The notes: a model not told the origin generated them from the letters alone. 64,000 bases of DNA from Anaerolineae bacterium (GCA_034432855.1 DAOUBA010000058.1:5483-69482), one strand, 5' to 3'; positions 18,489 to 33,706 are shown, numbered from the stretch's first letter. Made by a program: numbers and translations.

Positions 18489-18492
18489 TGGC

Positions 18493-18967: not shown

Positions 18968-18968
18968 G

Positions 18969-19307: not shown

Positions 19308-19563
19308 CCGAATGCCCAGATAGATGCTGCCCAGGATGCCGAGGGTGTTGAGGGGCGCCCAGAGCCAGTTGATGGTCTGCTACCGCGTTTCTGCACGATT
19401 TGCGGCTGGGCGGGGTGGGGAGGCATTGCACTGCTGCTGGTGATTGCCCACATTTGCGGCACTTCTACCCGAGGGAGGGACTTTCGGAGGGGCGAGCGCT
19501 TCGCGCCCGCCCCTCCGATTTCTTCTTTCTCTGGACATGTGGGTAATCCCAGTGCGTTTGACC

Positions 19564-19606
19564 TTGACAAATCAAAGGGATCGGTGTATAATGTTGTTAT
19601 AACAAG
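19564..19606 (+). promoter_or_regulatory. Consensus sigma70-like promoter TTGACA(19564-19569)-17-TATAAT(19587-19592), immediately followed by the palindrome TTGTTATAACAA (19595-19606), a GntR/HutC-type operator candidate
   Basis: ccttgacaaatcaaagggatcggtgtataatgttgttataacaagac read directly; the palindrome GT-TATA-AC fits the GntR-family GT-N-AC operator architecture; 46 bp upstream of the gntR-like gene. Confidence 0.55.
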
Positions 19607-19651
19607 ACTACAGGATTACAGGATATTGACATATCAGGCGCGAGGAGCATT

Positions 19652-20419
19652 ATGGTTGATCGCGTTGAGATTGCTAACGTCGGAGCCATAAGCAAAGACA
19701 GCCCTATTCCCCTCTATTTTCAGCTCAAGGAACTCTTGCGGCAGGAGATGGAAAGTGGACGCTGGCTGCCAGGACAGCAAATTCCTTCCGAACCGGAGTT
19801 GTGCGAAGCCTTCGGCGTGAGCCGTACGGTTGTGCGTCAGGCGCTAAGAGAGTTGGAGTATCAGGGGCTGCTATATCGTGAGCAAGGCAAGGGCACTTTT
19901 GTAGCACAGCCCAAGATCAGCGAGAGCCTGATGCAAGACCTGTCTGGCTTCTACGAGGATACGGTGTCCAAAGGACTCGCGCCGGTCACGCAGGTGTTAA
20001 GGCAAGAGGTTCAACCAGCCTCTAAGAAAATCGCCGACTATCTCCAGATCGAGCCCGGTGACAAAGTTATTGTGATCGAGCGTCTGCGCTCTGTGGGCAG
20101 CGAGCCTATTGTGTTGGTGACGACCTACCTTCCTTATGACTTGTGTCCCGATCTCGTCAACGAGGACCTGAGCACTCAATCCCTTTATGCTCTGTTGGAG
20201 GGCAAATATGGCCTGTTGCTTTCTCACGGTCGGCGGACAATCGAGGCTGTGGCAGCAAATCAGTACGAGGCTGAGCACTTGCACATCAAGGTAGGATCGC
20301 CACTTGTTCTGCTGAACAGCGTTAGCTATCTGAAGGATGGTCGCCCTATTGAGTACTTCCATGCAGTACACCGTGGCGACCGAAGCCGATTTGAGGTGGA
20401 GGTCGTCCGCAAACGGTAG
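19652..20419 (+). CDS. GntR family (HutC/UTRA subfamily) transcriptional regulator
   Basis: N-terminal HTH PLYFQLKELLRQEMESGRWLPGQQIPSEPELCEAFGVSRTVVRQALRELEYQGLLYREQGKGTFV plus a C-terminal UTRA effector domain. Confidence 0.85.
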   Translation: MVDRVEIANVGAISKDSPIPLYFQLKELLRQEMESGRWLPGQQIPSEPELCEAFGVSRTVVRQALRELEYQGLLYREQGKGTFVAQPKISESLMQDLSGFYEDTVSKGLAPVTQVLRQEVQPASKKIADYLQIEPGDKVIVIERLRSVGSEPIVLVTTYLPYDLCPDLVNEDLSTQSLYALLEGKYGLLLSHGRRTIEAVAANQYEAEHLHIKVGSPLVLLNSVSYLKDGRPIEYFHAVHRGDRSRFEVEVVRKR

Positions 20420-20814
20420 AGGGAGTCTCCTTCGACCAAATGACAGAACCTGGTAGCGATTAGAGGTTCGCATCAACAGTGAAAAGGTCCGTCCCAGGCG
20501 ACCATTCGTATCCTCAACAGCATCACCGGCGTCGAACTCCTGGCCGTGGTGCCATCCTACTTTCCTCGGTCACCGGCACGGCAATTCAAGCCCGTAGTAG
20601 GGGATGACCTCTACCAGGCCCAGGTCTACCGGCGGCTGGCGACTCCGATGCAACGGCATACCGACCGTGTTAGGACTAGCAGATAGGGTATAACAGCAAA
20701 GGAGGAAATATGAGAGTGAAGATTTGACCCATTTTCCAGAACTCGGCTGACGAGCGTCCCCGTCCTCCGGCACATCTGACGGGGAAACTAGCAAGATAGA
20801 AAAAAGGAGGAAAA

Positions 20815-22269
20815 ATGGATACAAAGGGGTTAACCCGCCGTGAGTTCATTCGCGGCGCAGCATTGACCGGCGTTGGACTGGCAGCAGCAGCATGCGCCCC
20901 CAAACCCACACCGACTGCAGCGCCTGCTGTGGCTCCTGCCCCTGCACTCCCTGCTGAAGAGAAGGAGAGGGAAAGACTGGCCCAGCAATACAAGAACGCC
21001 GAGCCCGGGCAAAAGTTCATGATTGGCCACATCACTTGGGGGCTGGCGCAAGAATATCTGATGATGTGCTACCAGGCTTGTGAACAGGCGTGTAGACAAC
21101 TCAATCTGGATTTTGCCGGTGCGGTGGCCGAGACCGATGCGGCGTGGCTCGAGACAACCGAGAGCATGATCGCTGCTGGTGCAAAGGCAATAGTCTACAA
21201 CTGCCCATCCGCGGCTATCCTGGCCGAGCTGGCAAGGATCTGCAACGAGAACAACGTGTTCATGGCCACACACTTCGGATATACCGGGGATATGTTCCCA
21301 GGAGACCTTGGGCCGCGATGGGTCGTAGACAACACGCCGCTGTCGGACGAGCAGACTTTTCTCCCATTGATGCTGCTCTTCGAGAAGATGAGGCAAAATG
21401 GGAAGACCAAGTTACTGCACCACCAGGCGCACAAAACGGCCGCTACCTGCTCCACCGTCTACATCAACCTTGGAGTCTTCCAGGCCTGGAAGTTCTATCC
21501 CGAGATGCAGGTGTTAGGCCACCAGTACGGCAACTGGAACTTTGAAGGTGGGAGAGCAGCAGCCGAGGCCTCGCTGGCAGTTCGGACGGACTATGAGGCT
21601 CTATGGGGCGCCAACGACTCGCAAACTACGGGCGCCTTGAGGGCATGCGAAGACCGTGGCTTGAGGATCGGCCCCTACACGGCCTCGAGAGACATGGAGA
21701 TGACTACGGCGGAAGAGATCCTGAAAGGGAATTTCCTCGTGACCGCTGGATTCGCCATTCCCTACTTTGGCGGAAGAATGGTCCCCATGCTCTACGATAT
21801 GTGCGTTGGCGCCTGGTATCCGCTGAAGGACGAGATGGTTCAGGCCGGCAGGATAGATTGTTACGGCCGGCCTGGTGAAGTCGAGCAACTGGCCGAGGCT
21901 GCCCGTATCACTTACCATCCGAGTTTCAAGCTGGGCCCAACCCAGGACAATCTGAATCAGGTATTGAAGCAAATGAAAGCGTCGCCGCCGGAGTATCCGT
22001 ACGACTTCAGGCTAATCTCTGTCTCAAAGTGTAGGGAACTCGGTCTGACGTATGACCGCCATGCCGGTGGCGGAACCTATCTGGGCCAGCATGACTATTA
22101 TTTCCCAGCGAAACTCAAAAAGTTCGGCAGCATCGAGGCCCTCAAGGCCCACGTCGCCGCTCTCCATGAGCACTTTCTCGACTTCAGCTGGGCCGACACG
22201 TGGGAGCAGGCAGAAGAGTATGCGAAAAAGTTTCCGCCGGAACTGAAGACGGAGCCTATCTGGCTGTAA
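20815..22269 (+). CDS. Periplasmic sugar-binding protein (PBP type I fold) with a Tat-type signal and lipobox; substrate-binding component of the adjacent ABC transporter
   Basis: Twin-arginine leader MDTKGLTRREFIRGAALTGVGLAAAAC; type-I PBP core FMIGHITWGLAQEY...AKAIVYNCPSAAILAELARICNENNVFMATHF; strong RBS aaaaaggagg. Confidence 0.7.
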   Translation: MDTKGLTRREFIRGAALTGVGLAAAACAPKPTPTAAPAVAPAPALPAEEKERERLAQQYKNAEPGQKFMIGHITWGLAQEYLMMCYQACEQACRQLNLDFAGAVAETDAAWLETTESMIAAGAKAIVYNCPSAAILAELARICNENNVFMATHFGYTGDMFPGDLGPRWVVDNTPLSDEQTFLPLMLLFEKMRQNGKTKLLHHQAHKTAATCSTVYINLGVFQAWKFYPEMQVLGHQYGNWNFEGGRAAAEASLAVRTDYEALWGANDSQTTGALRACEDRGLRIGPYTASRDMEMTTAEEILKGNFLVTAGFAIPYFGGRMVPMLYDMCVGAWYPLKDEMVQAGRIDCYGRPGEVEQLAEAARITYHPSFKLGPTQDNLNQVLKQMKASPPEYPYDFRLISVSKCRELGLTYDRHAGGGTYLGQHDYYFPAKLKKFGSIEALKAHVAALHEHFLDFSWADTWEQAEEYAKKFPPELKTEPIWL

Positions 22270-22361
22270 TGGCGGATTGGCGATTCCCTTTTCCACCCTA
22301 TCTGCTAGTTCTAACACGGTTGGTATGCGAGTAGCAAGAGTCGTGATTGGAAGAGGCTAGT

Positions 22362-23894
22362 ATGGCAATGCCGATGGATGTCCCATTGTTGGAAGTCAAG
22401 AGCGTTTCCAAGACCTTCGACGGAGTCGTGCGCGCCTTAGACGATGTGAGTATAGCCGTCTACCCCAATGAAATAGTGGGCGTTGTGGGAGAAAACGGGG
22501 CCGGCAAATCTACGCTCATGAAGATTCTGGTAGGTGTTTATTCGCCAGATAAGGGGGAATTGTATTATCGGGGAAGAAAAGTCCCATTTCCCAAGAATCC
22601 CAAAGAGGCGGCTCAAAGGGGAATCTCGATTGTCTATCAGGAAAAAGGGGTCATCCCCCTCTTGAGGGTATACCAATTCCTCCTCTTGGGGCACGAGGAT
22701 AAGTATGTCAGATTCTCGGGGCTGCAGATAGACAAAATGAAGGGGCTTGCAAGCGAGATATTGGAGGAGTTTCATGTAAAGTGCGATGTCGAGAGTTTTA
22801 TGTATGAACTGCCGCTTTCCACCCAGAAGATGGTTGAAATCGTGAGGGCGATTCTGAGTGTAAGGTTGGAGCATGGGGATGACGACGTTACGTCGGTCAT
22901 CATACTCGACGAGCCAACCGCACCGTTAACCATCGAGGAACGTCGGGAGTTGTTCAGTGACATACTGAACATGAAGAAGAATGCCTCGTTCGTCTTTGTC
23001 TCACACATCATACCCGAAGTGATGGAATTCACAGACAGAGTACACGTGCTGCGGGATGGTCGGCTGGTGGCTCACTACGACCTATCCAGGGAGAAAGTAA
23101 CAGAGGAGGATCTGTTCAGGGCGATAGTCGGTAGAGAATCTTCCGAGTACGTCTACAGACCGGAAACTAGGGTGGTAGGCGAGGAGATCGTTTTAGCGGT
23201 CAGGAATTTGACTAAGAGTGGCTGCTATTATGATGTCTCGTTCGAACTGCAGAAGGGCGAATGCATAGGAATCTTTGGGCCGGCGGGATCAGGCAAGAGC
23301 GAGATCATACAGACAATCGCCGGCCTCGTAAGTTTTGACAAGGGGGGCCTGAGCGTCAAAGGCCAAGAAGTGATGGCCGACGAGCCCCCTCACGCTAGAT
23401 TAGAGAGGGGTATTGGATATTTCTCGGGAGAGACCGGAAAAGAACTGTTTCTGAACTGGCCGATCACGAAGAACATCTCTATAGTCAATATTGAGAAGAT
23501 ATCAGGAAGGTCCATCCCGGTGATCAGTTTCAAAGCCGAGAGGAAGATGGCAGAAGAGATCGTAAGGAGGCTGAGAATCAAAGCCCCAAGCGTTAGCGCA
23601 GATTGCTATTCTCTGAGTGGCGGCAACAAGCAGAAGGTCTCTGTGGGGAAATGGATTGAGCGGAACCCCGACATACTTTTGCTAGAGGATCCGACGATAG
23701 GAATAGATGTGGGAGCCAGAAGCGATATCTTTGAAACCATCTTGGAGATGAAGATGCGCGGCACCTCGATGATCCTTGTGAGCGACGACCCTAAAGAATA
23801 CTCCATACTGTGCGATAGGATCATGTTCATCAAGAACGGGATCGTTCAAAGAGTCCTCAGTCCGGAACAGTTCGGGGAGATGATGGTGGCATGA
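22362..23894 (+). CDS. Sugar ABC transporter ATP-binding protein with duplicated NBDs (CUT2/RbsA-MglA type)
   Basis: Two Walker A motifs (GENGAGKST ; GPAGSGKSE), two signature motifs (LSTQKMVEI ; LSGGNKQKV) and a D-loop. Confidence 0.9.
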   Translation: MAMPMDVPLLEVKSVSKTFDGVVRALDDVSIAVYPNEIVGVVGENGAGKSTLMKILVGVYSPDKGELYYRGRKVPFPKNPKEAAQRGISIVYQEKGVIPLLRVYQFLLLGHEDKYVRFSGLQIDKMKGLASEILEEFHVKCDVESFMYELPLSTQKMVEIVRAILSVRLEHGDDDVTSVIILDEPTAPLTIEERRELFSDILNMKKNASFVFVSHIIPEVMEFTDRVHVLRDGRLVAHYDLSREKVTEEDLFRAIVGRESSEYVYRPETRVVGEEIVLAVRNLTKSGCYYDVSFELQKGECIGIFGPAGSGKSEIIQTIAGLVSFDKGGLSVKGQEVMADEPPHARLERGIGYFSGETGKELFLNWPITKNISIVNIEKISGRSIPVISFKAERKMAEEIVRRLRIKAPSVSADCYSLSGGNKQKVSVGKWIERNPDILLLEDPTIGIDVGARSDIFETILEMKMRGTSMILVSDDPKEYSILCDRIMFIKNGIVQRVLSPEQFGEMMVA

Positions 23895-24859
23895 AGATGG
23901 AGAGAAATCGGCTGATCGCGGTCATGATGCAGACCGTGAAGGCTCACCCTGTCATTGTCGTGCTAATCGCTCTCGTTGCGATGTTTTCAGGTTTATATCC
24001 GGAAAGATTTCTATCACCCTTGAATTTCTCGACAATTCTGAAACAGTTTGTAACGCTTACATTATTTGCGCTTGGCCCTTCAATGATCGTGGTGACCGGC
24101 TCGCTAGACCTGTCGTTCGTGGGGATCTGGATGCTGGGAGGTATCCTGGTGTGGCTTTTCACGCCGATCCTGGGGACATTCTCAATTCTTGTCATTCCCT
24201 TATTGGGGTTAGTCACGGGGTTCTTCGTCGGCGTCGTACAAGTCAAGGCAAAAATACCCTCTTTCATCCTGACGTTGAGTTTATTGGTCACATACTGGGG
24301 ATTGACGGCCACGCTCTCAGGGGGATACCCGAGGCCCGTTCGTGGATACGAGTTTATCACTGCGCCGTTGATACCCTATCTGCCCACGGCCTTTCTATGG
24401 TCTATCCCAATCATAGCCGCTGCCGTGTTCATCATGAAACGCACCAAGGTAGGCACGTATCTATACGCCATCGGGTCAAACGAAGAAGGGGCCCGGTTAG
24501 CCGGAATCAACGTTGATAGGTACAAGATACTGGCTTTCTCGTTAAGCGGACTGTTTACGGGCATAGGGTCAATTATCCTGTTCCAACACCTCGGAGGCGC
24601 GGCGCCGGTGGAACTCAATCTAAATAACATGGTGTGGCCGCTCGTTGCCATCGTTCTGGGTGGAACGCCGCTCGTTGGGGGGAGCGGCGGGCCCCAAAGA
24701 ACGATACTTGGCGCGTTGACCTTTGCCGTGGTGAATCGCGGATTGGTCCTGTCGCTATTGCACCCCGAGGCGATACAACTCCTTTTGGGGTTATTGCTCA
24801 TCATCTCCATTGTAGTGGGGAGTAGGGGGTTGAAGTTGAAAGGGGTAACGATCACATGA
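23891..24859 (+). CDS. ABC transporter permease (RbsC/branched-chain-type BPD_transp_2)
   Basis: Polytopic; ..GSNEEGARLAGINVDRYKILAFSLSGLFTGIGSII.. conserved permease loop; 4-nt overlap with the ATPase gene. Confidence 0.85.
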   Translation: MKMERNRLIAVMMQTVKAHPVIVVLIALVAMFSGLYPERFLSPLNFSTILKQFVTLTLFALGPSMIVVTGSLDLSFVGIWMLGGILVWLFTPILGTFSILVIPLLGLVTGFFVGVVQVKAKIPSFILTLSLLVTYWGLTATLSGGYPRPVRGYEFITAPLIPYLPTAFLWSIPIIAAAVFIMKRTKVGTYLYAIGSNEEGARLAGINVDRYKILAFSLSGLFTGIGSIILFQHLGGAAPVELNLNNMVWPLVAIVLGGTPLVGGSGGPQRTILGALTFAVVNRGLVLSLLHPEAIQLLLGLLLIISIVVGSRGLKLKGVTIT

Positions 24860-25833
24860 AGGGCGAGAAAACGATGGTCAGACCACCGCTTGCCCAGGAA
24901 TGGCTTCGAAGCAATAGGACTACAGTCGGGCTGATTGTCGCTGCGCTGGTGATTATCGCCGGATTTCAGGTGGTGAACCCTTTCTTTCTCAGTTATGATG
25001 GAATACTCACGTTGGTCTACGCTATGTCATACTTCCTGATAGCCGCCTGCGGATTGACTTTCGTCATCATGATGGGCTCTTTCGACTTCTCGGTGGTCAG
25101 CGTATTGAAACTCGCTGCGCTCCTATGCGTCCTGTACATTGACCGGCTCGGACTCTGGGTAATTCCCCTGGCTTTACTGATCAGCGTGGGGTTTGGCTTC
25201 ATCAACGGGCTATTCTTCGCCAGATTCAACGTCCCCTCGTTCATGGCGACGCTCGGCGTTTCCGTCGTGGTCGAGGGAATCGCGTTGTATCTCTCGAAAG
25301 GCTTTCTCCACATCATGGGCAATGCGACCTTCAGAGCCCTGGCAACGACCTTTATAGCCGGCTTGCCCTCGATATTCTATTGGGCGATGGGCATCTGGCT
25401 CATCAGCACTTTCGTGGCTCTGTGCACGCCCTTCGGAAGGCGCATCTACGCGGTCGGAGGCAACCCGATAGGCGCCGGACTCTCGGGCATAGACGTGGAG
25501 AGGCACAGAATTTATGGCTTCATGCTCAGCAGTTTCTTTGCCGGTCTGGCAGGAGTTTTGTACATGGCGCAGTTGGGGGGCGGCTCTATGGAAATCGGTG
25601 CAGACCTGGCCATACCGCTTTTCGCGAGCGTGGTCGCAGGCGGCACAGCCCTCACGGGAGGCATAGGGGGGCCGCATAGGACTCTGCTTGGAGTGGTCAT
25701 CCTTACCTGGCTGCGAGCCGGGATGTTAATGCTTGCAATCGGTCGTGATGTGCAGATGATCACGTTTGGCCTGATCGCCCTGGCCGTGGCTATCGCCACA
25801 ATAGATAGGAAACGGATAAAGTTTGTCAAGTGA
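24856..25833 (+). CDS. ABC transporter permease (second BPD_transp_2 subunit)
   Basis: ..AVGGNPIGAGLSGIDVERHRIYGFMLSSFFAGLAGVL..; overlaps the upstream permease by 4 nt. Confidence 0.85.
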   Translation: MKGEKTMVRPPLAQEWLRSNRTTVGLIVAALVIIAGFQVVNPFFLSYDGILTLVYAMSYFLIAACGLTFVIMMGSFDFSVVSVLKLAALLCVLYIDRLGLWVIPLALLISVGFGFINGLFFARFNVPSFMATLGVSVVVEGIALYLSKGFLHIMGNATFRALATTFIAGLPSIFYWAMGIWLISTFVALCTPFGRRIYAVGGNPIGAGLSGIDVERHRIYGFMLSSFFAGLAGVLYMAQLGGGSMEIGADLAIPLFASVVAGGTALTGGIGGPHRTLLGVVILTWLRAGMLMLAIGRDVQMITFGLIALAVAIATIDRKRIKFVK

Positions 25834-25875
25834 GTTCGCCGATTACCTCCGATAACAGCATCTTTCCGTCCGTAG

Positions 25876-26640
25876 ATGGCAGGCGCGTACATGCAGGCCT
25901 TGAAGAATAAAGTGGCTATCGTCACGGGTTCGTCGAGGGGCATTGGCAGAGCAATTGCCATTGCTTTTGCCAAAGAAGGCTGCAAGGTGGTGGTGAACTA
26001 TTGCCATTCCAGAGAGCATGCCGTCGCAGTTTCAGGGGAGATCGAAAAAGTTAACCCGAAAGGAAGTATCGTTGTCCAGGCTGATGTATCGGTGGAAGAC
26101 GACGTGGAAAGAATGGTGAACGAAACCATTGCCGCATTTGGAACACTGCACATCCTGGTGAATAACGCCAGTATTGCTCATAGATGCGCGTTCCTCGATA
26201 TGTCACTTGGCGAATGGGAACGCATGATCCGCAACGACCTCACGAGCGTCTTTCTGTGTACCCGCATCGCTATTCCACATATTCTGAAAAACGGCTGGGG
26301 CAGGATCATCAACATTGCTTCGACGTCTGGAATAACAGGCGGAACCTCCGGTGCCCATTACGCGGCTGCGAAGGGCGGCGTGATTGCGTTGACAAAGGCC
26401 CTCAGCAGCGAGTTCGCACCGTATGGAATAACGGTTAACGCCATCGTGCCAAGTAAAATAGAGACGGATATGCTGTGGGAATCTCTTGATGAGAAAGGCA
26501 GGGAGGCGACACTCAAAAAGATTCCTGTAGGAAGGTTCGGCAGGCCGGAGGAAATCGCAAACCTCGCTCTTTTTCTCGCTTCTGACGACGCCGGATACAT
26601 TACGGGCGAAACGATTGTAGCGTCAGGAGGATACCGATAA
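25876..26640 (+). CDS. SDR family oxidoreductase (short-chain dehydrogenase/reductase)
   Basis: TGSSRGIGRAIA cofactor motif; NNAS..; catalytic YAAAKGG (YxxxK). Confidence 0.85.
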   Translation: MAGAYMQALKNKVAIVTGSSRGIGRAIAIAFAKEGCKVVVNYCHSREHAVAVSGEIEKVNPKGSIVVQADVSVEDDVERMVNETIAAFGTLHILVNNASIAHRCAFLDMSLGEWERMIRNDLTSVFLCTRIAIPHILKNGWGRIINIASTSGITGGTSGAHYAAAKGGVIALTKALSSEFAPYGITVNAIVPSKIETDMLWESLDEKGREATLKKIPVGRFGRPEEIANLALFLASDDAGYITGETIVASGGYR

Positions 26641-26911
26641 GGGTGGGGCACTCTCCCCGGTTTTCTGCGCCTCTGATGGAGTCGGCGCGGAGGCGATCCG
26701 CCGGATCGCCCCCACTGGCGCGAGCACCCCATGCAAGGGAAGGAGGTGCTGCCAAGAGTCGGATTCAGCAATCGCTCTATGTAGACCCAAGAATGCCGAA
26801 ACGTGGAGAAGGGAGGTGAAATGAAGGTCAGATTTCAGAACAGTTAGGTTGAGGATCGTAGTAACCAAAGCCGGAACGTCTAATTTTCAGAAACTTGAGG
26901 AGGAAGGAAAA

Positions 26912-28174
26912 ATGAAAAGGTCTGTGTATCTGTTGATCGCTGTTGCTCTGCTGTTGAGCCTGGTAGTGAGCGCCTGTGCTCCCCAGCCTGGTCCGACGGC
27001 CGTCGCGACAGCAGTTGTCACTAAGGTGGTCGAGGTGCCGGTTGAAGTCGTGGCCACGCCGACGCCGCTGCCGGAAAAAGTGGGGTGCCCCGATAATATC
27101 GTCATCTGCTGGACCCCGCCCGATATCACGGGCGTCTTCAGGACGGCGACCGACTTTTTCATGAAGTCGGCTTTGGATGCCCGAAGGGCCGGGATCAACG
27201 TCTCGCTCGTCTCTCAGGCGCCTACCAGCCACTTGGCCTTCGGAGATCAGGTGGCCATCATCGAGGACTTTGTGGCCCGGAAGTGTGATGTCATCGCCAT
27301 CTCCCCCATCGAGGTCGAGGTGGTCATCCCGGCCATCAAGAAGGCCAATGAGGCGGGCATTCCGGTGATCATCGTCAACCTGCTGGAACCCATCGCCGGC
27401 GTGGAGGTGGCTTCCTACATCGGCTTCGACAACACCGAAGCCGCGAGGATCACCGCCTTTGCCCTGGTGGACTACTTCGGAGGGCCGGGTATTCTGGGTA
27501 CAGGTCGTAAGGTGGACGTAGAACTGGACACGTATCTCGACCTGGCCTGGTGGGAGGCTCTCTACGAGACCATCACCGAGGAGGAGAGGGCAGCGGTCAA
27601 GGCCAAGGTGGCCATCATCGAGGGCGTCGCCGGGGGCTTCTTCTCCCAGGCGCGGCTGAATGGCTTCCATAGCGTCGTGGACGAGTTCCCGGGTATCGAG
27701 ATCGTGGGAGCGCCCTGCGCTGCGGACTGGAACCGCGAGAAGGGAATCAAGTGTGCCGAGGACTTTCTGACCGCCTATCCCGATCTGGACGGCATCTGGG
27801 CTGCTTCCAACGAGATGGGTCTGGGGGCCATGCTCGCTGCCGCGGGTGCTGGTCGGCTGGAGTTGGCCGGGGAAGGCCCGGTGCTGGGTGATGGTAAGGT
27901 GGCCATCTTCACCAACGACGTCACGCCCGAGTCTGCCGACCGGGTAGCCGAGGGGAAGATGATCGCCGAGACCACTCATGGCTTCCCAGACTGGGGGTGG
28001 TATGGAACCGAGTTTGGGGTGACTATGGCCTGCGGCGGGCAGGTGCCCAAGATCTTTGACATCCGGCCCCGCATCATGTATCAGGCAAACGCGCGTCTGT
28101 TCTATCCCGAACCGGCGCTGGAGCCCATTGACTGGGAGACCATTAGCCAGGGCGGGTCGCCGCGCATGCCATAG
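26912..28174 (+). CDS. Periplasmic sugar-binding lipoprotein (PBP type I), substrate-binding protein of the second ABC system
   Basis: Lipoprotein signal MKRSVYLLIAVALLLSLVVSAC; PT-rich linker; type-I PBP core ..ISPIEVEVVIPAIKKANEAGIPVIIVN..; RBS gaggaggaagg. Confidence 0.75.
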   Translation: MKRSVYLLIAVALLLSLVVSACAPQPGPTAVATAVVTKVVEVPVEVVATPTPLPEKVGCPDNIVICWTPPDITGVFRTATDFFMKSALDARRAGINVSLVSQAPTSHLAFGDQVAIIEDFVARKCDVIAISPIEVEVVIPAIKKANEAGIPVIIVNLLEPIAGVEVASYIGFDNTEAARITAFALVDYFGGPGILGTGRKVDVELDTYLDLAWWEALYETITEEERAAVKAKVAIIEGVAGGFFSQARLNGFHSVVDEFPGIEIVGAPCAADWNREKGIKCAEDFLTAYPDLDGIWAASNEMGLGAMLAAAGAGRLELAGEGPVLGDGKVAIFTNDVTPESADRVAEGKMIAETTHGFPDWGWYGTEFGVTMACGGQVPKIFDIRPRIMYQANARLFYPEPALEPIDWETISQGGSPRMP

Positions 28175-28371
28175 CCATAAGTGTGCAACTCGGCAAGGGA
28201 GGGTCGCATCCTTCTGCTGGAGGGGCGACCCTCCCCTCCGAATGGAAACTGAGGCTGTCCCTAGTACTCTGTCAACCATGATTGGGTGGTAGAAATCGGC
28301 GTCAGAGACTCCTACCGTAGTTTTGTACCGGAAACTAGCCCCTCGTGGGCTTGTGAGGAAGGAGACGCAAG

Positions 28372-29133
28372 ATGAGGCTGGTTGATAAAGTTGCAATCAT
28401 CACAGGTGCAGGCGCAGGGATCGGTCGTTCTACTGCGCTCCTCTTTGCCCGGGAGGGTGCCAGGGTCGTGGTTGCCGACCGCGATCCGCAAGAGGGAGCA
28501 AAGACCGTGAGCCTGATCGAGGAGAACGGCGGCGCGGCAATATTCGTTCAGGTGGATGTGTCTAAAGCGGCCGACGTGAGGAAGATGGTCGAGACAGCCA
28601 TCGAGACGTACGGTAAACTCGATATCCTGGTAAACAATGCCGGGATTTACGTGCAGGCCGACGTGGTGGAAACCACGGAAGAAGAATGGGATCGGATTTT
28701 GAACGTCAACCTGAAAGGGGCTTTTCTGTGTTCCAAGTACTGTATTCCTGAGATGATTAAGAATGGAGGCGGGTCTATTGTCAACGTCGGGTCTGAGGCG
28801 GGCATCGCGGGCATCAAGAACCAGGTGGCTTACAATGTATCCAAGAGCGGGATGATAGCTCTGACCAAGAGTACGGCCATAGATTTTGCGGCCCACAATA
28901 TCAGGGTCAATTGTGTCTGCCCCGGCACCACGGAAACACCCTTGGTCAAGATGGCACTGGAGAGAGCGCCAGACCCGGCAGCGGCGCGCCGCGCCCTGGA
29001 ACAAGTTCGTCCCGCCAACAGGCTGGGGCGGCCGGAGGAGATAGCCGCCGGTATTCTCTATCTGGCCTCTGATGAATCCCCGTACGCCACGGGTTCAATA
29101 CTCTCTATAGACGGCGGGTACACAGCTCAATAA
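28372..29133 (+). CDS. SDR family oxidoreductase
   Basis: TGAGAGIGRSTA; NNAGI; YNVSKSG (YxxxK). Confidence 0.85.
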   Translation: MRLVDKVAIITGAGAGIGRSTALLFAREGARVVVADRDPQEGAKTVSLIEENGGAAIFVQVDVSKAADVRKMVETAIETYGKLDILVNNAGIYVQADVVETTEEEWDRILNVNLKGAFLCSKYCIPEMIKNGGGSIVNVGSEAGIAGIKNQVAYNVSKSGMIALTKSTAIDFAAHNIRVNCVCPGTTETPLVKMALERAPDPAAARRALEQVRPANRLGRPEEIAAGILYLASDESPYATGSILSIDGGYTAQ

Positions 29134-29140
29134 GGAGGCC

Positions 29141-30637
29141 GTGCAAACCATGTCTTCGCTTATCTTGCGTACTGAGGCGATTGACAAGCGCTACCCGGGC
29201 GTTCACGCGCTGAATCACTTTGATTTCGATCTCTGCGAGGGAGAAGTCCATATTCTCCTGGGCGAGAACGGGGCGGGCAAGTCAACCTTCATGAAGATTC
29301 TCAGCGGCTCTGTGCCGCCGGATAGTGGCCGGATTTTCCTGCGCGGCCGGCAGGTTCACATCGTAAGCCCGCATCATGCACGAGAATTGGGAATAGGCAT
29401 GGTTTATCAAGAACTAAGCCTCATTCCCCGTCTTAGTGTAGCCGAGAATATTTTCCTGGGCAGACTCCCCAAGCGCAGACCATTCGGGACCGTTGATTGG
29501 CCCGCAGCCATGTCGCAGGCCAGGAGAATCTTGGATGATCTGGGCGTTGACATTGACCCCGGGGAACGCGTCGGCAACCTCAGTATGGGCGAGCAGCAAT
29601 TGATCGAGATCGCCAAGGCTTTGTCTATGAATGCGCAAATCCTGCTGCTGGATGAGCCTACCTCGGCCCTATCCGATGAGGAGCGCGAGCGACTCTTCAG
29701 CATCTTGCGAGGGTTTCAGGAGAGGGGGGTGGCGATCATCTATGTCTCCCACCGCCTGGCCGAGGTTCCTCGGATCGGGCATCGAGTGACCGTCCTGCGC
29801 GACGGCGCGAAGGTAGACACCCTTCCGGTAGACCAGGCTGATGAAGCCACCTTGATTCGGATGATGGTGGGCCGCGAGTTGGGAGAACAATTCCCCAAAG
29901 AGAAAGTGAAGCGTGGCCGGGAACTGTTGAGGGTTGAAGGTTTGACGGTAAAAGGGGTGCTGAACAACCTCAGCCTGAGCGTTCACGAAGGTGAGATTGT
30001 GGGCATTTCTGGCCTGTTGGGGGCGGGCCGCACAGAGTTTGCTCGCGCCCTCTTTGGGCTTGATCCGATTGACGGGGGTGAGATCTTTGTAGATGGAAGG
30101 AAGGTCAAAATCACTTCCTCCTCGGAGGCTATTGCGTTAGGCCTCGGTTATCTCACCGAAAGCAGGAGGGATGGACTCGTGCCGCGATTGCCCATCCCGC
30201 CCAACATCACTTTGGCCAACCTGAAAAGGATGTGTCAACTGGGCTTTCTCAAACGCAATGAAGAAAGAACGTTGGCAGAGACATACGTCAAAGAATTGAA
30301 CATCCATACATCCAGGTTGAGTCAAATGGTCGAGTTTCTCAGCGGCGGCAATCAGCAAAAGGTCGCCCTGGCCAAGTGGTTGTGTACTCAGGCAAAAGTC
30401 CTGATTTTCGATGAGCCTACCAGAGGGATCGACGTGGGAGCCAAGGCGGAGGTCTTCCGTCTGATGAACGACCTGGCGAAAAAAGGGGTGGGGATCATCT
30501 TGATTTCCTCCGAGATGCCGGAGATTCTAGCCATGTCCGACCGTATTCTGGTAATGGCCAGGGGTTCCTTCGTGGCCGAATATGCGGCCGGGCAGGCATC
30601 TCAGGAAGATCTCTTGAGAGACGCCGTAGCAAAATGA
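29141..30637 (+). CDS. Sugar ABC transporter ATP-binding protein with duplicated NBDs
   Basis: Walker A GENGAGKST and a second NBD (GLLGAGRTE); signature LSMGEQQLIEI / LSGGNQQKVAL. Confidence 0.9.
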   Translation: MQTMSSLILRTEAIDKRYPGVHALNHFDFDLCEGEVHILLGENGAGKSTFMKILSGSVPPDSGRIFLRGRQVHIVSPHHARELGIGMVYQELSLIPRLSVAENIFLGRLPKRRPFGTVDWPAAMSQARRILDDLGVDIDPGERVGNLSMGEQQLIEIAKALSMNAQILLLDEPTSALSDEERERLFSILRGFQERGVAIIYVSHRLAEVPRIGHRVTVLRDGAKVDTLPVDQADEATLIRMMVGRELGEQFPKEKVKRGRELLRVEGLTVKGVLNNLSLSVHEGEIVGISGLLGAGRTEFARALFGLDPIDGGEIFVDGRKVKITSSSEAIALGLGYLTESRRDGLVPRLPIPPNITLANLKRMCQLGFLKRNEERTLAETYVKELNIHTSRLSQMVEFLSGGNQQKVALAKWLCTQAKVLIFDEPTRGIDVGAKAEVFRLMNDLAKKGVGIILISSEMPEILAMSDRILVMARGSFVAEYAAGQASQEDLLRDAVAK

Positions 30638-30653
30638 GAAAGGAGCACACATA

Positions 30654-31688
30654 ATGATCAAGAATCTTTCGGGATCGAGCGTTTCGGACTTGGGACGGGT
30701 CAAGACGTGGGTGGCTACGCCTCAACTGCGGGTACGGCTGGTGATCCGAGCCGTACTGGTGTTGGCCGTGATGCTATTCATCTACTATGTTGCGACGGCG
30801 CCCCGCTTCTTCAGTGTTGCCAACGCAGCCAACGTGGCCGCGCGAACGGCGCCGGGCATCATCTTGGCCGTGGCGCAGACGATGGTTATCATCTCGGCGG
30901 GCATTGACTTGTCCGTAGGGGCCATCCTCGCCTTTTCAGGCTCGTTGGCTTCGATAGCCTATTGCTATTGGGGCGTCCCCGTCTGGCCGGCTATGCTGCT
31001 CGCCCTTGCAGCAGGCGCCCTGTTGGGCTGTATCAACGGCCTGATTATCATGAAGGGCAAGATTCCCGATTTTATCGCTACACTGGGGATGATGGGCACA
31101 GCCCGTGGCATAGCCCTCATCCTGACCGGTGGGTTGCCTGTCCCTTCTCACCTGACCGCCGTTACTCTCAAGGCTTATCTGCCCAATGAGATCATTTGGA
31201 TGGGGAGCGGGAACATCCTTGGCTTCCCGGCAGGTGCCCTTATCGCCTTGCTGGTCGTCGTTGCCGGTTGGGTGATCCTGAGGCACACCGGTTTTGGACG
31301 CGCTATCTATGCCGTCGGTGGGAATAGAGAGGCGGCCAGGGTCTCGGGCATTGATGTTGACCGTACCAAGATCATGGTCTACACCCTCTCGGGATTGCTG
31401 GCGGGGCTGGCCAGCCTAGTGCTAGTAGGGCGCATGAACTCTGCCAACGCTCTGATGGCAGAACCGGCGAATCTGGAAAGCATCTCGGCTGCGGTCATCG
31501 GGGGCACCAACCTCTTCGGGGGCGAGGGTGGCGTGATCGGCTCCTTGATCGGTGCTCTCATCATGGGCATCCTGGGCAACGTTCTGAACCTGCATAATGT
31601 GCAGGATTTTGCGCAGCGGGTCTTTATGGGGTTGCTGATTATCGGCGTCGTACTGTTCGATCAGTTACGGAGAAGGTACGGCGCCTGA
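30654..31688 (+). CDS. ABC transporter permease (BPD_transp_2)
   Basis: ..AVGGNREAARVSGIDVDRTKIMVYTLSGLLAGLASLV.. polytopic. Confidence 0.85.
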   Translation: MIKNLSGSSVSDLGRVKTWVATPQLRVRLVIRAVLVLAVMLFIYYVATAPRFFSVANAANVAARTAPGIILAVAQTMVIISAGIDLSVGAILAFSGSLASIAYCYWGVPVWPAMLLALAAGALLGCINGLIIMKGKIPDFIATLGMMGTARGIALILTGGLPVPSHLTAVTLKAYLPNEIIWMGSGNILGFPAGALIALLVVVAGWVILRHTGFGRAIYAVGGNREAARVSGIDVDRTKIMVYTLSGLLAGLASLVLVGRMNSANALMAEPANLESISAAVIGGTNLFGGEGGVIGSLIGALIMGILGNVLNLHNVQDFAQRVFMGLLIIGVVLFDQLRRRYGA

Positions 31689-31712
31689 AACTGGTGAAAG
31701 GTGAGGGAGGCT

Positions 31713-32576
31713 ATGAAGTATTCTATAAGCAACTGGATATATGCCGACGAGCCCTTGCGGATCACTTTCCAACGCCTGCAGAAGTACGGTTACGACGGTG
31801 TAGAACTGGTAGGCGAGCCTCAGCGTTACAACGTCCAGGAGATCAACGGGCTTTGCCAGGAGTTCGGGCTTTCCGTCCTCTCCGTCCTCGGCTGGGCCAT
31901 CTGGCCCCTGGAGAGAGACCTGGCTCACCCGGACCCTCAGATGCGCCGGAAAGCCCTCAAGTACGCCGCCGAATGCGTGGACCTGGCCGTGGCCGTAGGG
32001 GCCCCCCTGGTGGTGGTTATCCCCGCCTCGGCAGGGAGAACCAGCCCGATTGGCCGGCTGGATAGCGGGGAAGCCTGGAAGGAGGCGGTGGCGAGGGAAT
32101 GGGACTATGCTGTGGAATCCGTCAAGGCCGCAGCAGCCTGTGCTGAGGAATACGGCGTGCTGATCGCCGTAGAGCCCATTAATCGGTACGAGAGCTTTCT
32201 CGTCAACAACGTGGATCAGGGCCTTCGCTTCGTCCAGGAGGTGAACTCTACAGTGGCAAGGCTGCATCTCGATGCGTTCCATATGAACATCGAAGAGAAG
32301 GATGTGGCCGAGGCTGTCCGCAAGGCCGGTGATCTCCTGGTCAACATGCACATTTCCGATTCCAACCGGGCGGCAGTGGGCCACGGCCACACCGACTTTA
32401 GGGCCATCATGCAGGCTTTGCAAGAGATCAACTACCAGGGTATACTTACCATGGAGCCTGTGCCGCCGGTGCCCGATGCCTTCATGGCTATCTCGATGGA
32501 AGAGTTCCTGCCCCTCAGGGATGTTTACGCTGAGGAGTGCATCACGCGCCTTCGCCAATACGAACGAGAGGTCTGA
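31713..32576 (+). CDS. Sugar phosphate isomerase/epimerase (xylose-isomerase-like TIM barrel)
   Basis: AP_endonuc_2 / XylA-like fold: ..LIAVEPINRYESFLVNNVDQGLRFVQEV..LHLDAFHMNIEEKD..; RBS gagggagg before ATG 31713. Confidence 0.75.
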   Translation: MKYSISNWIYADEPLRITFQRLQKYGYDGVELVGEPQRYNVQEINGLCQEFGLSVLSVLGWAIWPLERDLAHPDPQMRRKALKYAAECVDLAVAVGAPLVVVIPASAGRTSPIGRLDSGEAWKEAVAREWDYAVESVKAAAACAEEYGVLIAVEPINRYESFLVNNVDQGLRFVQEVNSTVARLHLDAFHMNIEEKDVAEAVRKAGDLLVNMHISDSNRAAVGHGHTDFRAIMQALQEINYQGILTMEPVPPVPDAFMAISMEEFLPLRDVYAEECITRLRQYEREV

Positions 32577-32622
32577 ACGCATCAGCCTGCTTGTGTGCGG
32601 ATTGTAGGGATAAAGGTTAAGA

Positions 32623-33486
32623 ATGAACAAGATCGGCATATACTATGCCTATTGGACGCACGATTGGGACGCGGACTTTCACCCTCTCATTGACAAGGTC
32701 GCTGAACTGGGATTTGATGTTCTGGAGGTCAATGCGGGTACCATAGCCGGCATGACATTTGAAGAACGCCAAAGCCTGAAAGCACACGCCGACGATAGGA
32801 ACATCATCCTGTCGCATTGCATTGGTCTTCCCCACCAATACGATATCGCCTCTGTAGACAAAGCCATCCGGGAGAATGGCATTGCCTACCTCAAGAAAAT
32901 CGCCAGGGCGATAGGCGAAATGGGTGGAGGGAATCTGGGTGGGATCATCTATGGTTCCTGGCCCGCAACGATGCCCGCAGGCGAGACGGATAAACGACCC
33001 TATGTCGAGCGCAGCGTTGTCAGCATGAAAGAAGCGATCAAGGCTGCAGAAGACAACAACGTCATTTTCAACGTGGAGGTGGTCAACCGTTTTGAGCAGT
33101 TCCTCATAAATACGTGTGAAGAAGCAATTGCTTACGTGGAAGCGGTTGCTAGCCCTAATGTCAAGATTCTGCTAGATACCTTTCATATGAACATCGAGGA
33201 GAATTTCATTGGCGAAGCGATCCAGAAAGCCGGTGACAAGTTGGGGCATCTCCATGTTGGGGAGAACAACAGGATGCCGCCCGGCTATGGCCATATCCCT
33301 TGGACAGAGGTCGGCGCTGCGTTGCGGAAGGTTGATTACCAGGGATACGTCGTTATGGAGCCCTTCCTGATGCCTGGCGGGGAAGTAGGACGCGACATCA
33401 AGGTTTTTCGAGACATGAGCGCCGATCTGGAGTTGGATGATGAAGCGCGAAAGGCTTTGATGTTCATTCGCGGTGTTTTGAAATAG
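32623..33486 (+). CDS. Ketose 3-epimerase (D-psicose/D-tagatose 3-epimerase family)
   Basis: Near-motif-by-motif match, from memory, to characterised D-psicose 3-epimerase: GIYYAYW..W.AD....I.KVA.LGFD.LE ; EV[VL]NRFE.[FY]LINT ; [ML]LDTFHMNIEE..IG.AI..AG..LGHLH.GE.NR.PG.G.IPW ; VVMEPF...GG.VG..IKV[FW]RD. Confidence 0.75.
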   Translation: MNKIGIYYAYWTHDWDADFHPLIDKVAELGFDVLEVNAGTIAGMTFEERQSLKAHADDRNIILSHCIGLPHQYDIASVDKAIRENGIAYLKKIARAIGEMGGGNLGGIIYGSWPATMPAGETDKRPYVERSVVSMKEAIKAAEDNNVIFNVEVVNRFEQFLINTCEEAIAYVEAVASPNVKILLDTFHMNIEENFIGEAIQKAGDKLGHLHVGENNRMPPGYGHIPWTEVGAALRKVDYQGYVVMEPFLMPGGEVGRDIKVFRDMSADLELDDEARKALMFIRGVLK

Positions 33487-33579
33487 GTGAAGTGAGGTGG
33501 GGCGCATGTAAATCTTGCGGGGGGACGAACGTCGGTTGAGCGCCGCCGTGTGCTCAAAGCACACGGCTGAGCCCACCGA

Positions 33580-33600
33580 AAGCCCTGCCGGGCTTATTTT
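33580..33600 (+). terminator. Putative intrinsic terminator (AAGCCC-tgcc-GGGCTT + TATTTT) after the epimerase gene, within a hairpin-rich 220-bp intergenic region
   Basis: Read directly; a further perfect 10-bp-stem hairpin sits at 33545-33567 (gccgtgtgct-caa-agcacacggc). Confidence 0.4.
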
Positions 33601-33706
33601 CAGCCCCTTAAGGAGGCTTTTGCCTGTTCAGCCCGGTGCTTTAGCGCCGGGCACGAGACAGTCAGCACTTCCCCCCCAAGTGCTACATGCGCCCAGTGAG
33701 GTGCAC

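Follow-up and report, generated by a model that had tools for sequence, protein, structure and literature searches.

The 64,000-nucleotide stretch of Anaerolineae DNA analysed here (hereafter the window) contains a block of roughly 14 kb that is poorer in GC than its surroundings and encodes sugar transporters and sugar-converting enzymes. A preliminary description had proposed that this block is a self-contained, horizontally acquired island, and the question is whether it is one, or a compositionally odd part of something larger.

The dip itself is readily measured. Positions 19600-33500 exhibited a GC content of 55.3%, against 63.2% for the remainder of the window (63.1% to the left and 63.3% to the right), the host baseline being the 50 kb of flanks in the window and not the genome-wide GC of the MAG; the flanks, previously put at 65-70%, measure about 63%. 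In a scan of the window, the lowest-GC 13.9-kb interval begins at 19501, and a maximum-likelihood two-change-point fit placed the bounds of the segment at 19518-33516 (55.3% versus 63.3% GC; log-likelihood gain of 145). Further small low-GC spots occur elsewhere in the window, for example at a D12 DNA methyltransferase gene (48492-49565).

Per-gene comparison of the 12 genes of the segment with 36 flank genes gave GC contents of 0.554 and 0.633 (Mann-Whitney p = 3e-6) and GC3 values of 0.667 and 0.785 (p = 9e-6), with GC1 and GC2 likewise lower in the segment. Synonymous codon usage differed as well (chi-square 514, 41 df); the AAA, AGA and ATA codons, earlier described as frequent, are all enriched (per 1000 codons, segment versus flank: ATA 13.0 versus 2.7, AGA 8.7 versus 2.9, AAA 15.6 versus 9.1). 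Amino-acid usage is shifted towards Lys and Ile and away from Arg, Pro and Ala, and composition-normalised tetranucleotide signatures correlated less well with the flank pool in windows from the segment (r = 0.69-0.81) than in windows from the flanks (0.84-0.94). These results indicate that the 14-kb GC dip is real and the composition shift significant: both GC content and codon usage of 19.6-33.5 kb differ from those of the rest.

The segment and its edges carry the following features, the left change point (19518) coinciding with the end of the hairpin listed first.

19484-19518, plus strand: GC-rich hairpin with 16-nt arms, then a T-rich run (inverted-repeat search, sequence reading)
19564-19592, plus strand: sigma-70-type promoter match TTGACA-17-TATAAT, 12/12, upstream of gntR
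19594-19605: 12-bp palindrome TTGTTATAACAA, 3' of the promoter match
19652-20419, plus strand: gntR, GntR/HutC-family regulator (GntR HTH plus UTRA; Pfam), GC 0.54, GC3 0.62
20656-20696, plus strand: IS982-family end remnant within a 395-bp intergenic region, arm 1 of the 41-nt inverted repeat around SBP1
20815-22269, plus strand: SBP1, CUT2-type solute-binding lipoprotein of 484 aa with a twin-arginine-like signal and lipobox, first cassette-1 gene
22288-22328, minus strand: IS982-family end remnant, arm 2, on the far side of SBP1 and oriented towards arm 1
22362-23894, plus strand: cassette-1 ABC ATPase with two nucleotide-binding domains (Pfam ABC_tran twice; gene call in L090), GC 0.50
23891-24859, plus strand: cassette-1 permease a (BPD_transp_2; Pfam)
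24856-25833, plus strand: cassette-1 permease b (BPD_transp_2; Pfam)
25891-26640, plus strand: SDR1, short-chain dehydrogenase (Pfam)
26912-28174, plus strand: SBP2, CUT2-type solute-binding lipoprotein of the core transporter (Pfam Peripla_BP_4, 145 bits)
28372-29133, plus strand: SDR2, core-cluster short-chain dehydrogenase (Pfam; NF004791 at 319 bits, cut-off 312, a model with a generic SDR name)
29150-30637, plus strand: core ABC ATPase with two nucleotide-binding domains (Pfam; gene call in L088)
30654-31688, plus strand: core permease, a single BPD_transp_2 gene (Pfam)
31713-32576, plus strand: XI1, xylose-isomerase-like TIM-barrel enzyme (Pfam, NCBIfam, PDB search)
32623-33486, plus strand: predicted ketose 3-epimerase, D-psicose/D-tagatose 3-epimerase family (NCBIfam NF051856, PDB), last low-GC gene
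33491-33703, no strand: MITE-like insertion including direct repeats, the element itself being 195 bp (33500-33694)

Pfam searches of the segment revealed a GntR/UTRA regulator, two Peripla_BP_4 binding proteins, two double-NBD ATPases, three BPD_transp_2 permeases, two SDRs and two xylose-isomerase-like TIM barrels. The two complete CUT2-type importers anticipated from the sequence are present, set 1 with two permeases and set 2 with one, as are two xylose-isomerase-fold enzymes, one of them assigned by NF051856 to the D-psicose/D-tagatose 3-epimerase family; of the three SDRs expected, the third (38017-38769) lies in the high-GC part. The regulator carries an N-terminal GntR winged helix (PF00392, 77 bits) and a C-terminal UTRA domain (PF07702, 152 bits), placing it in the GntR/HutC subfamily, and its NCBIfam matches all fall under the equivalog cut-offs. 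The palindrome TTGTTATAACAA, which occurs once in the window and is by itself not significant, is a possible GntR-type operator and a hint at most. SBP2 is closest in the PDB to ribose/allose-binding proteins (about 1e-20), and its gene is host-like in GC (0.62; GC3 0.79); it is the GC-richest core gene in relatives as well. XI1 is closest to T. maritima TM0416/IolO-type epimerases and scores under every equivalog cut-off.

The product of 32623-33486 is a predicted ketose 3-epimerase, scoring 379.8 bits against NF051856, a curated equivalog with a cut-off of 300. Homologues 77-91% identical occur in Anaerolineae MAGs. Residues E152, D185, H211 and E246, which we take to be the metal/catalytic Glu-Asp-His-Glu residues of the family, are invariant in 28 homologues and align with the conserved motifs of the solved D-tagatose 3-epimerase 8xiv. 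With a GC content of 0.52 and GC3 of 0.61, this gene is immediately followed, beyond the MITE-like insertion, by genes of native composition.

33707-34753, plus strand: Gfo/Idh/MocA oxidoreductase, IolG-like below cut-off (Pfam, NCBIfam), first native-GC gene, GC3 0.81
34758-35810, plus strand: Zn-dependent alcohol/polyol dehydrogenase, IolM-like below cut-off (Pfam, NCBIfam)
35830-36402, plus strand: cupin-type sugar-phosphate isomerase (Pfam GPI)
36430-37992, plus strand: FGGY-family sugar kinase (Pfam)
38017-38769, plus strand: SDR3, outside the low-GC segment (Pfam)
38783-39706, plus strand: D-2-hydroxyacid dehydrogenase family protein (Pfam)
39712-40377, plus strand: KDPG/KHG aldolase (Pfam)
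40389-42215, plus strand: aldehyde:ferredoxin oxidoreductase (AOR; Pfam), conserved 3' end of the cluster
42199-42483, plus strand: ThiS-family small protein, with AOR at the conserved 3' end

Related genomes carry these genes in one order across both halves: GntR, CUT2 importer, SDR, two epimerase-fold enzymes, Gfo/Idh/MocA, Zn-ADH, cupin isomerase, FGGY kinase, then SDR, 2-hydroxyacid dehydrogenase, KDPG aldolase and AOR-ThiS. We found this cluster in an Anaerolineales MAG (L003/L004, GCA_030589485.1) and in further MAGs and metagenome contigs (L092/L125, L094, L006, L008). The gntR orthologues stand at its head in L003, L094, L006, L008 and L125, and the AOR-ThiS end is syntenic in L003, L092, L094, L006 and L008; the XI1 gene is deleted in L003, leaving a 180-nt remnant. 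Judged by this synteny, the low-GC segment is the 5' half of a sugar/polyol cluster of about 23 kb in Anaerolineales that ends at 42.5 kb, its 3' half having native GC. This stretch does not by itself make up an island: the conserved cluster goes on at native GC to about 42.5 kb, and the proposed self-contained 14-kb unit is contradicted by the synteny. The rare-sugar or polyol island earlier envisaged survives as a set of genes for sugar/polyol uptake and conversion, though one that runs on beyond the dip.

The right boundary has a local explanation. The hairpin-dense spacer at 33487-33706, initially read as the island border, contains the MITE-like insertion, with 24-nt imperfect terminal inverted repeats (83% complementary) and the 9-bp direct repeat AGTGAGGTG abutting both ends (33491-33499 and 33695-33703), a target duplication; the region folds with z = -6.7. 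The element is absent from L003, which offers an empty site with a 25-bp spacer between epimerase and Gfo. Once the 204-bp insertion is removed, the junction in the window is orthologous to this spacer, indicating that the epimerase-Gfo junction is ancestral and common to relatives. Like MITEs, the element is short (195 bp) and non-coding, with terminal inverted repeats and a 9-bp target-site duplication, but a single copy was found: there was no second one in the window nor in 147 loci, and the terminal inverted repeat pattern was not found in JGI metagenomes. We call it MITE-like, membership of a repeat family being unproven on one copy.

Cassette 1 (20.6-26.7 kb, about 6 kb) comprises SBP1, an ATPase, two permeases and SDR1, the gene with the lowest GC3 in the segment (0.57), which accompanies the cassette in L092/L125 and L113. 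SBP1 matches Pfam Peripla_BP_4 weakly (41 bits, cut-off 35), has no NCBIfam family and gave weak matches only in the PDB search. The position of the cassette varies: it lies between gntR and SBP2 in the window, between permease and epimerase in L092/L125, where it adjoins an ISL3 fragment, and between SBP2 and SDR2 in L005, and it is absent from L003, L094, L006 and L008. Contigs that carry homologues at 79-90% identity span 36-68% GC and come from Anaerolineae, Armatimonadota and Ca. Caldatribacterium (about 2 Mb long in the last of these), and the window cassette resembles the copy on the low-GC contig L098 (84-88%) more closely than that of the cluster relative L092 (73-84%). In L092/L125 the corresponding arms are 221 nt long, and their translation matches the C-terminal end of a transposase (NF033520 IS982, E = 6e-9 and 4e-8, model positions 191-242 of 243; also DDE_Tnp_1), as fragments below full-length cut-offs; the 41-nt arms of the window align with the final ~35 nt of these longer ones. 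On this alignment, SBP1 is bracketed by inward-facing IS982-family end remnants. Taken together, the IS982 remnants, the shifting insertion points and the close homologues (79-90% identity) spread over three phyla and over contigs of 36-68% GC clearly indicate that the cassette was horizontally acquired and moves between phyla.

The core genes behave differently: they are present and syntenic in relatives, whereas cassette 1 is variable in position or absent. Their GC3 in the window (GntR.62, SDR2.65, ATPase.66, permease.72, epimerase.61) falls in the range of the same genes in relatives of 57-58% GC (L003, L092, L094;.56-.74), and the 3' half of the cluster has the GC3 of the non-cluster genes of the window (both.80). 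Throughout the epimerase gene GC3 stays at.50-.70, and less than about 90 nt from the Gfo start it has risen to at least.83. Identity to L003 at four-fold degenerate sites is 0.64 in the 5' half and 0.53 in the 3' half. Homology searches place the closest relatives of the segment genes outside the cassette in Anaerolineae, as for the flank genes, so a core donor, if any, would be a relative and not a distant taxon. No near-identical core donor was present in the databases (best non-self epimerase, 91%), no relative shared left-flank synteny or the left-hand homology for a simple homologous replacement, and no empty-site relative lacking the segment was found. In L094, L008 and L092 the GC content of the core 5' genes likewise lies 1-5% below that of the 3' half, and in L003, L005 and L094 it lies below that of the small number of local genes outside the cluster; because these genes are GC-poor in relatives too, part of the dip would be gene-intrinsic or recurrent. 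The GC3 match with the 57-58% GC relatives suggests that the core genes came from a lower-GC relative, with part of the GC deficit possibly intrinsic. Of the horizontal acquisition proposed for the whole block, the 6-kb cassette has insertion points, cross-phylum homologues and IS982 remnants in its favour; for the core genes the evidence is compositional, and distances are congruent.

We therefore weighed whether only the 6-kb cassette is foreign, the core 5' genes being vertical and their low GC gene-specific (amino-acid content, weak codon selection or recurrent gene conversion). Three-taxon distances fit this reading, giving ((L003,L092),window) with similar ratios for both halves, as does the conserved GC pattern in which epimerase, ATPase and GntR are the lowest-GC cluster genes in nearly every relative and SBP2 the highest, and so does the low GC of the core genes relative to local genes noted above for L003, L005 and L094. 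In the higher-GC hosts L008 and L005, however, GC3 of the core genes is.72-.81 (at most.85), so that they follow host composition; the contrast of the window with its own 3' half (GC3 -0.11) is the largest seen (relatives, +0.04 to -0.07), the switch is abrupt and falls at an intergenic spacer, and amino-acid usage is shifted too. We regard a wholly vertical core as possible but rather unlikely.

An assembly chimera, joining a 63% GC genome to a stretch of a co-occurring relative of about 57% GC with the same cluster, has in its favour that the source is a metagenome-assembled contig and that the right junction lies in a repeat-like element, inside which two short Logan contigs, L002 (ending at 33553) and L089 (starting at 33666), break. 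It would require two joins, yet the left junction has no shared sequence for a mis-join and is crossed by the independent Logan contig L091 (window 18351-27334), and epimerase and Gfo occur with the same neighbours on three NCBI/Logan contigs in the size class of 50-200 kb (79,975 bp for the one from NCBI, 81,065 bp for the longest recorded). We judge from these contigs that the segment is not an assembly artefact, a chimera being highly improbable. Least credible of all is a classical integrative island, one self-contained unit from a distant lower-GC phylum integrated site-specifically. Sharp edges, uniformly lower composition and a cassette with cross-phylum relatives would suit it, but synteny already contradicts it, epimerase and Gfo being neighbours in at least five related genomes, and the best relatives of the core genes are Anaerolineae, as for the flank gene. 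The atypical composition of a genomic island is observed; no tRNA, no integrase or transposase among the called genes and no segment-flanking att-like direct repeat was found in the window, and the mobile traces at the segment are the 41-nt IS982 end remnants and one MITE-like element.

The segment is thus probably a composite of horizontally exchanged DNA, in which a cross-phylum cassette accompanies core genes from a lower-GC Anaerolineales relative. The 6-kb second importer cassette would have landed between gntR and SBP2. The core genes (gntR, SBP2, SDR2, ATPase, permease, XI1, epimerase) have the base, codon and amino-acid composition of an Anaerolineales genome of roughly 57% GC, and we infer that they most likely entered the 63% GC genome from such a relative, possibly together with the cassette. 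The incoming DNA would have replaced the resident 5' half and left the 3' half native, crossing over on the right at or beside the ancestral 25-bp epimerase-Gfo spacer. Going by family membership, the HutC-type repressor may control two lipoprotein-SBP ABC importers, and the SDRs and ketose 3-epimerase may turn a polyol or ketose, once taken up, into a compound on which the dehydrogenase, isomerase, kinase and aldolase encoded downstream can act. A bolder version is doubtful: an operon half swapped, along with the cassette, for a lower-GC congener allele by homology-facilitated recombination at epimerase-Gfo, the cluster being an undescribed anaerobic rare-sugar/cyclitol pathway of Anaerolineales and SBP1 having a new ligand.

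This locus shows sugar-uptake modules shuffled among uncultured Anaerolineales and across Chloroflexota, Atribacterota and Armatimonadota. A further lesson is that half an operon, and not a discrete island, can underlie a GC dip, which matters for automatic island annotation. For the discovery of substrates, such as rare sugars, polyols or cyclitols in anaerobic digesters and sediments, the conserved 23-kb cluster and the atypical SBP1 family make sensible starting points.

Both transporter sets resemble CUT2-family (ribose/xylose-type) ABC importers in their Peripla_BP_4 binding proteins, fused double-NBD ATPases and BPD_transp_2 permeases, although SBP1, at 484 aa, departs from typical CUT2 binding proteins in its weak domain match, lack of a close solved structure and twin-arginine-like lipoprotein signal. 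The epimerase is akin to the ketose 3-epimerases, among them the D-tagatose enzyme of P. cichorii and the D-psicose enzymes of A. tumefaciens and C. cellulolyticum, and aligns end to end with solved enzymes (E about 1e-86 to 1e-71; about 1e-86 for PDB D-tagatose 3-epimerases), but its gene shares a catabolic cluster with AOR and a cupin isomerase, a setting that, to our knowledge, has not been described for characterised ketose 3-epimerases. The nearest pathway is that for myo-inositol in Thermotoga maritima, whose genes we take to be IolG, IolM, IolO/TM0416, then KDPG aldolase: the best NCBIfam or PDB neighbour of Gfo is IolG, that of the Zn-ADH is IolM and that of XI1 is IolO/TM0416, and the cluster includes a KDPG aldolase. 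Scores are all well below the Iol equivalog cut-offs (289 versus 355, 204 versus 450, 158 versus 300), and no IolN-type hydrolase was identified; the likeness is one of chemistry only.

The inverted, inward-facing IS982-family ends around SBP1 recall composite-transposon-like IS-flanked genes, except that the copies are cut down to 41 nt and hence inactive. The segment differs from an integrative island, with its integrase, tRNA and att site, in being half of a conserved operon-like cluster, and from classic island transfer in that the likely core donor belongs to the same order. Its closest parallels are compositionally atypical transferred DNA and mosaic operons, with which it shares a sharp shift in GC, GC3, codons and tetranucleotides, IS/MITE debris, and the sporadic distribution and cross-phylum near-identity of the cassette. 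The transfer seen here is of this ordinary kind and leaves current understanding unchallenged.

The segment at 19600-33500 has a GC content of 55.3%, whereas the remainder of the window has 63.2% (63.1% on its left, 63.3% on its right). The lowest-GC 13.9-kb stretch of the window starts at 19501, and a maximum-likelihood two-change-point fit placed the limits at 19518 and 33516 (log-likelihood gain of 145). Per-gene comparison of 12 segment genes with 36 flank genes revealed lower GC (0.554 vs 0.633, p = 3e-6) and GC3 (0.667 vs 0.785, p = 9e-6) in the segment, with GC1 and GC2 lower too. The codons ATA (13.0 vs 2.7 per 1000 codons), AGA (8.7 vs 2.9) and AAA (15.6 vs 9.1) were all commoner in segment genes, synonymous codon usage differed from the flanks (chi-square 514, 41 df), and the encoded proteins had more Lys and Ile and less Arg, Pro and Ala. 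Composition-normalised tetranucleotide signatures correlated with the flank pool at r = 0.69-0.81 for segment windows and 0.84-0.94 for flank windows. These results bear out the low GC and the frequent AAA/AGA/ATA codons reported in the preliminary description, the segment deviating from the rest of the window in GC, codon usage and tetranucleotides alike; the flanks, which had been put at 65-70% GC, measured 63%. Elsewhere, a low-GC gene by itself (48492-49565, + strand; GC 0.54, GC3 0.68) encodes a D12-class N6-adenine DNA methyltransferase, and is probably another small acquired gene.

Genes of the segment, identified with Pfam.
19652-20419: GntR/UTRA regulator
20815-22269: solute-binding protein SBP1
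22362-23894: double-NBD ATPase of the cassette described below
23891-25833: two permeases of the same cassette
25891-26640: SDR1
26912-28174: solute-binding protein SBP2
28372-29133: SDR2
29150-30637: second double-NBD ATPase
30654-31688: one permease (core)
31713-32576 and 32623-33486: two xylose-isomerase-like TIM barrels

The two importers, the regulator and the two TIM barrels agree with the earlier account, but the segment holds two SDRs rather than three; the third (SDR3, 38017-38769) lies outside, in the high-GC part. The second TIM barrel (32623-33486) scores 380 bits with the NCBIfam equivalog model of D-psicose 3-epimerase, above its cut-off of 300, and gives full-length alignments to solved D-tagatose 3-epimerases (E ~1e-86). 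The first, XI1, is nearest to T. maritima TM0416/IolO-type enzymes, with a score under the cut-off. Direct reading of the translations revealed lipoprotein-type signals in SBP1 and SBP2; SBP1 is atypical, with a domain match of just 41 bits, no NCBIfam family matched and no close solved structure found. Among the specific equivalog scores the epimerase alone exceeds its cut-off, so the substrate cannot be named.

To the right of the segment, sugar genes continue at native GC to 42483.

Cluster genes right of the segment.
33707-34753: Gfo/Idh/MocA oxidoreductase (Gfo)
between Gfo and AOR, in order: Zn-ADH, cupin isomerase, FGGY kinase, SDR3, 2-hydroxyacid dehydrogenase, KDPG aldolase
40389-42215: aldehyde:ferredoxin oxidoreductase (AOR)
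ending at 42483: ThiS-family protein

The order GntR, SBP2, SDR2, ATPase, permease, (XI1), epimerase, Gfo, Zn-ADH, isomerase, FGGY, SDR3 ... AOR, ThiS is conserved in contigs of relatives, namely L003/L004 (Anaerolineales MAG GCA_030589485.1), L092/L125, L094, L006 and L008. The epimerase and Gfo, the last gene of the proposed island and the first of its flank, are therefore old neighbours, and this synteny overturns the proposal of a self-contained island: the segment is half of a conserved cluster that crosses the right border. Among the matches listed, many epimerase homologues, 77-91% identical, come from Anaerolineae/Anaerolineales MAGs, and the radical-SAM gene of the left flank has homologues of 75-88% identity in Anaerolineae/Chloroflexi. 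Since both match Anaerolineae, segment and flanks share taxonomic affinity; the epimerase thus does not differ from the flank, whereas matches to the cassette SBP1 reach other phyla. The AOR and the overlapping ThiS-family small protein (40389-42483) form the terminal pair of the cluster, kept in all relatives, and are unusual company for ketose/polyol genes. Within the 5' half, SBP2 has the highest GC of all genes, both in the window and in L003, L005, L008 and L125 (GC 0.60-0.64, GC3 0.72-0.85), while the lowest is usually that of the epimerase, a per-gene pattern kept across hosts.

We then examined the right border. GC3 stays at 0.50-0.70 over the entire epimerase gene and is at least 0.83 from ~90 nt into Gfo; the switch is therefore abrupt, and located at the spacer between them. 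This spacer is 25 bp long in L003, relative to which the window carries a 204-bp insertion: a 195-bp element (33500-33694) lying exactly between the two genes, with 24-nt imperfect terminal inverted repeats, a strong fold (z = -6.7), and, on either side, one copy of the 9-bp direct repeat AGTGAGGTG (33491-33499, 33695-33703). The interval 33491-33703 looks like a MITE with its target-site duplication, a likeness of anatomy in a single copy that is at most a putative member of a repeat family. No further copies were found in the window or the fetched loci, nor was the terminal inverted repeat pattern found in JGI metagenomes (a collection that does not include the source organism, so the absence is weak evidence). 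The hairpin-dense spacer previously taken as the right bound is thus present and folds strongly, but its hairpin density is due to the MITE-like insertion. Rfam searches, run on the whole window at gathering thresholds and on 19-34 kb at E<=1, matched nothing in the hairpin regions. The 219-bp epimerase-Gfo spacer of L092 (10865-11082; also L093) appears, from a translation read by eye, to hold an N-terminal fragment of an FGGY kinase, and an FGGY gene occupies this position in L008, which indicates repeated cluster rearrangement at the junction.

Short Logan contigs break within the 195-bp element (L002 ends at 33553, L089 starts at 33666), as might happen if the segment had been joined to its surroundings by chimeric assembly. 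However, Logan contig L091 (SRR11582151) crosses the left junction without a break, covering 18351-27334, and the epimerase and Gfo occur together, with the same neighbours, on three NCBI/Logan contigs that fall in the 50-200 kb size class (79,975 bp for the NCBI contig, with a recorded maximum of 81,065 bp), making a chimera unlikely.

The left change-point, 19518, is the end of a GC-rich hairpin (19484-19518, 16-bp stem) followed by a T-run. This hairpin is terminator-like on the + strand, yet no + strand gene lies upstream; it may be left over from such a gene, since lost. A perfect TTGACA-17-TATAAT promoter match (19564-19592) is followed by a 12-bp palindrome, TTGTTATAACAA, at 19594-19605, plausibly a candidate GntR-type operator. 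It occurs once, at the gntR promoter, and is not significant alone, so no regulon can be proposed. Further left lie genes with native GC3, encoding a small membrane protein, an HTH protein, a truncated ABC ATPase remnant, DUF433 and radical SAM. The remnant (~18234-18488, - strand; 84-aa product, Pfam ABC_tran), between DUF433 and the small HTH/membrane genes, points to earlier rearrangement at this border. The left flank has no synteny with any relative examined: in L097, which carries the closest relative of the radical-SAM gene (88% identity), upstream synteny is kept and divergence begins immediately downstream, with none of the downstream genes present in the window. We found no classical island markers (tRNA, integrase, flanking direct repeats).

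Within the segment, the transporter cassette (SBP1, ATPase, two permeases and SDR1; 20.6-26.7 kb) changes position among relatives. In the window it follows gntR and precedes SBP2; in L092/L125 it separates the core permease from the epimerase and adjoins an ISL3 transposase fragment; and in L005 it is placed between SBP2 and SDR2. L003, L094, L006 and L008 lack it. We found it on 50 metagenomic loci in unrelated contexts (contig GC 36-68%), and named SBP1 homologues, 78-90% identical, belong to Anaerolineae, Armatimonadota and Ca. Caldatribacterium; mis-binning is of no concern for the last, whose contigs are ~2 Mb. The window cassette is nearer to that of L098, a 49% GC contig (84-88%), than to that of the cluster relative L092 (73-84%). 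In the window, L005 and L092 the cassette has less GC than its host, and on L111 (38% GC contig) it has more than its neighbours, a pattern that a circulating module at different stages of partial amelioration would show. On high-GC contigs such as L103 (68% GC) the cassette, at ~80-86% protein identity, is GC-poorer than its neighbours. For this part of the segment the proposed horizontal acquisition is very likely, given the variable positions, the cross-phylum homologues and the affinity to L098.

SBP1 is bracketed by a 41-nt inverted repeat (20656-20696 and 22288-22328), which is also found on both sides of SBP1 in L005 (12432-12458, 14147-14173) and L092 (1884-2104, 3680-3900), hence in three lineages. 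In L092/L125 each arm extends over 221 nt and codes for the C-terminal part of an IS982-family transposase (NF033520, E = 6e-9 and 4e-8), so the window arms are decayed inward-facing ends of two IS copies. SBP1 therefore once lay between two such copies, in a composite-transposon-like arrangement. The transposase-coding arms led us to drop three other readings of the repeat: a GntR operator pair, mRNA 5'/3' pairing, and an inverton.

Import of the core 5' genes as well is less certain.

GC3 of core 5' genes in the window; in L003, L092 and L094 (57-58% GC); and in the higher-GC L008 and L005.
GntR:.62;.56-.65;.75-.77
SDR2:.65;.61-.62;.72-.73
ATPase:.66;.61-.66;.73-.77
permease:.72;.64-.74;.75-.78
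epimerase:.61;.60-.62;.77-.81

GC3 of the 3' half in the window (.80) equals that of the non-cluster genes (.80). At four-fold degenerate sites the 5' half resembles L003 more closely (identity 0.64) than the 3' half does (0.53), indicating that the 5' half skipped the GC-raising substitutions of the rest of the genome. Amino-acid distances count against import, giving ((L003,L092),window) in both halves with similar ratios, and no donor nearer than 91% is known for the epimerase among the matches listed. Moreover, in L094, L008 and L092 too the core 5' genes have 1-5% less GC than the 3' half, and in L003, L005 and L094 they fall below the few non-cluster genes nearby, so part of the dip is gene-intrinsic or recurrent. 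Overall, we rate import from a lower-GC relative somewhat better than even. It could have proceeded by homology-facilitated recombination, with the conserved epimerase/Gfo region as the anchor and an illegitimate join at the left end.

Functionally, a HutC-type repressor would gate expression, and two CUT2 importers with lipid-anchored binding proteins would bring related sugars or polyols into the cell. SDR1 and SDR2 may oxidise or reduce the imported compound, and the ketose 3-epimerase and the TM0416-like enzyme may epimerise keto-sugars. The native 3' half is predicted to lead into central metabolism via IolG/IolM-like dehydrogenases, cupin isomerase, FGGY kinase, KDPG aldolase and AOR. 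We found no usable literature on this cluster in Anaerolineae, or on the Thermotoga inositol pathway.

The segment is thus one half of a sugar cluster conserved in Anaerolineales, foreign in composition and composite in structure: it contains an importer cassette found in several phyla and remnants of IS982 elements, and has a MITE-like insertion at its edge. The compositional observation of the preliminary description stands; acquisition as an island stands in part, firmly for the cassette, by a small margin for the core genes, and not as a self-contained unit.
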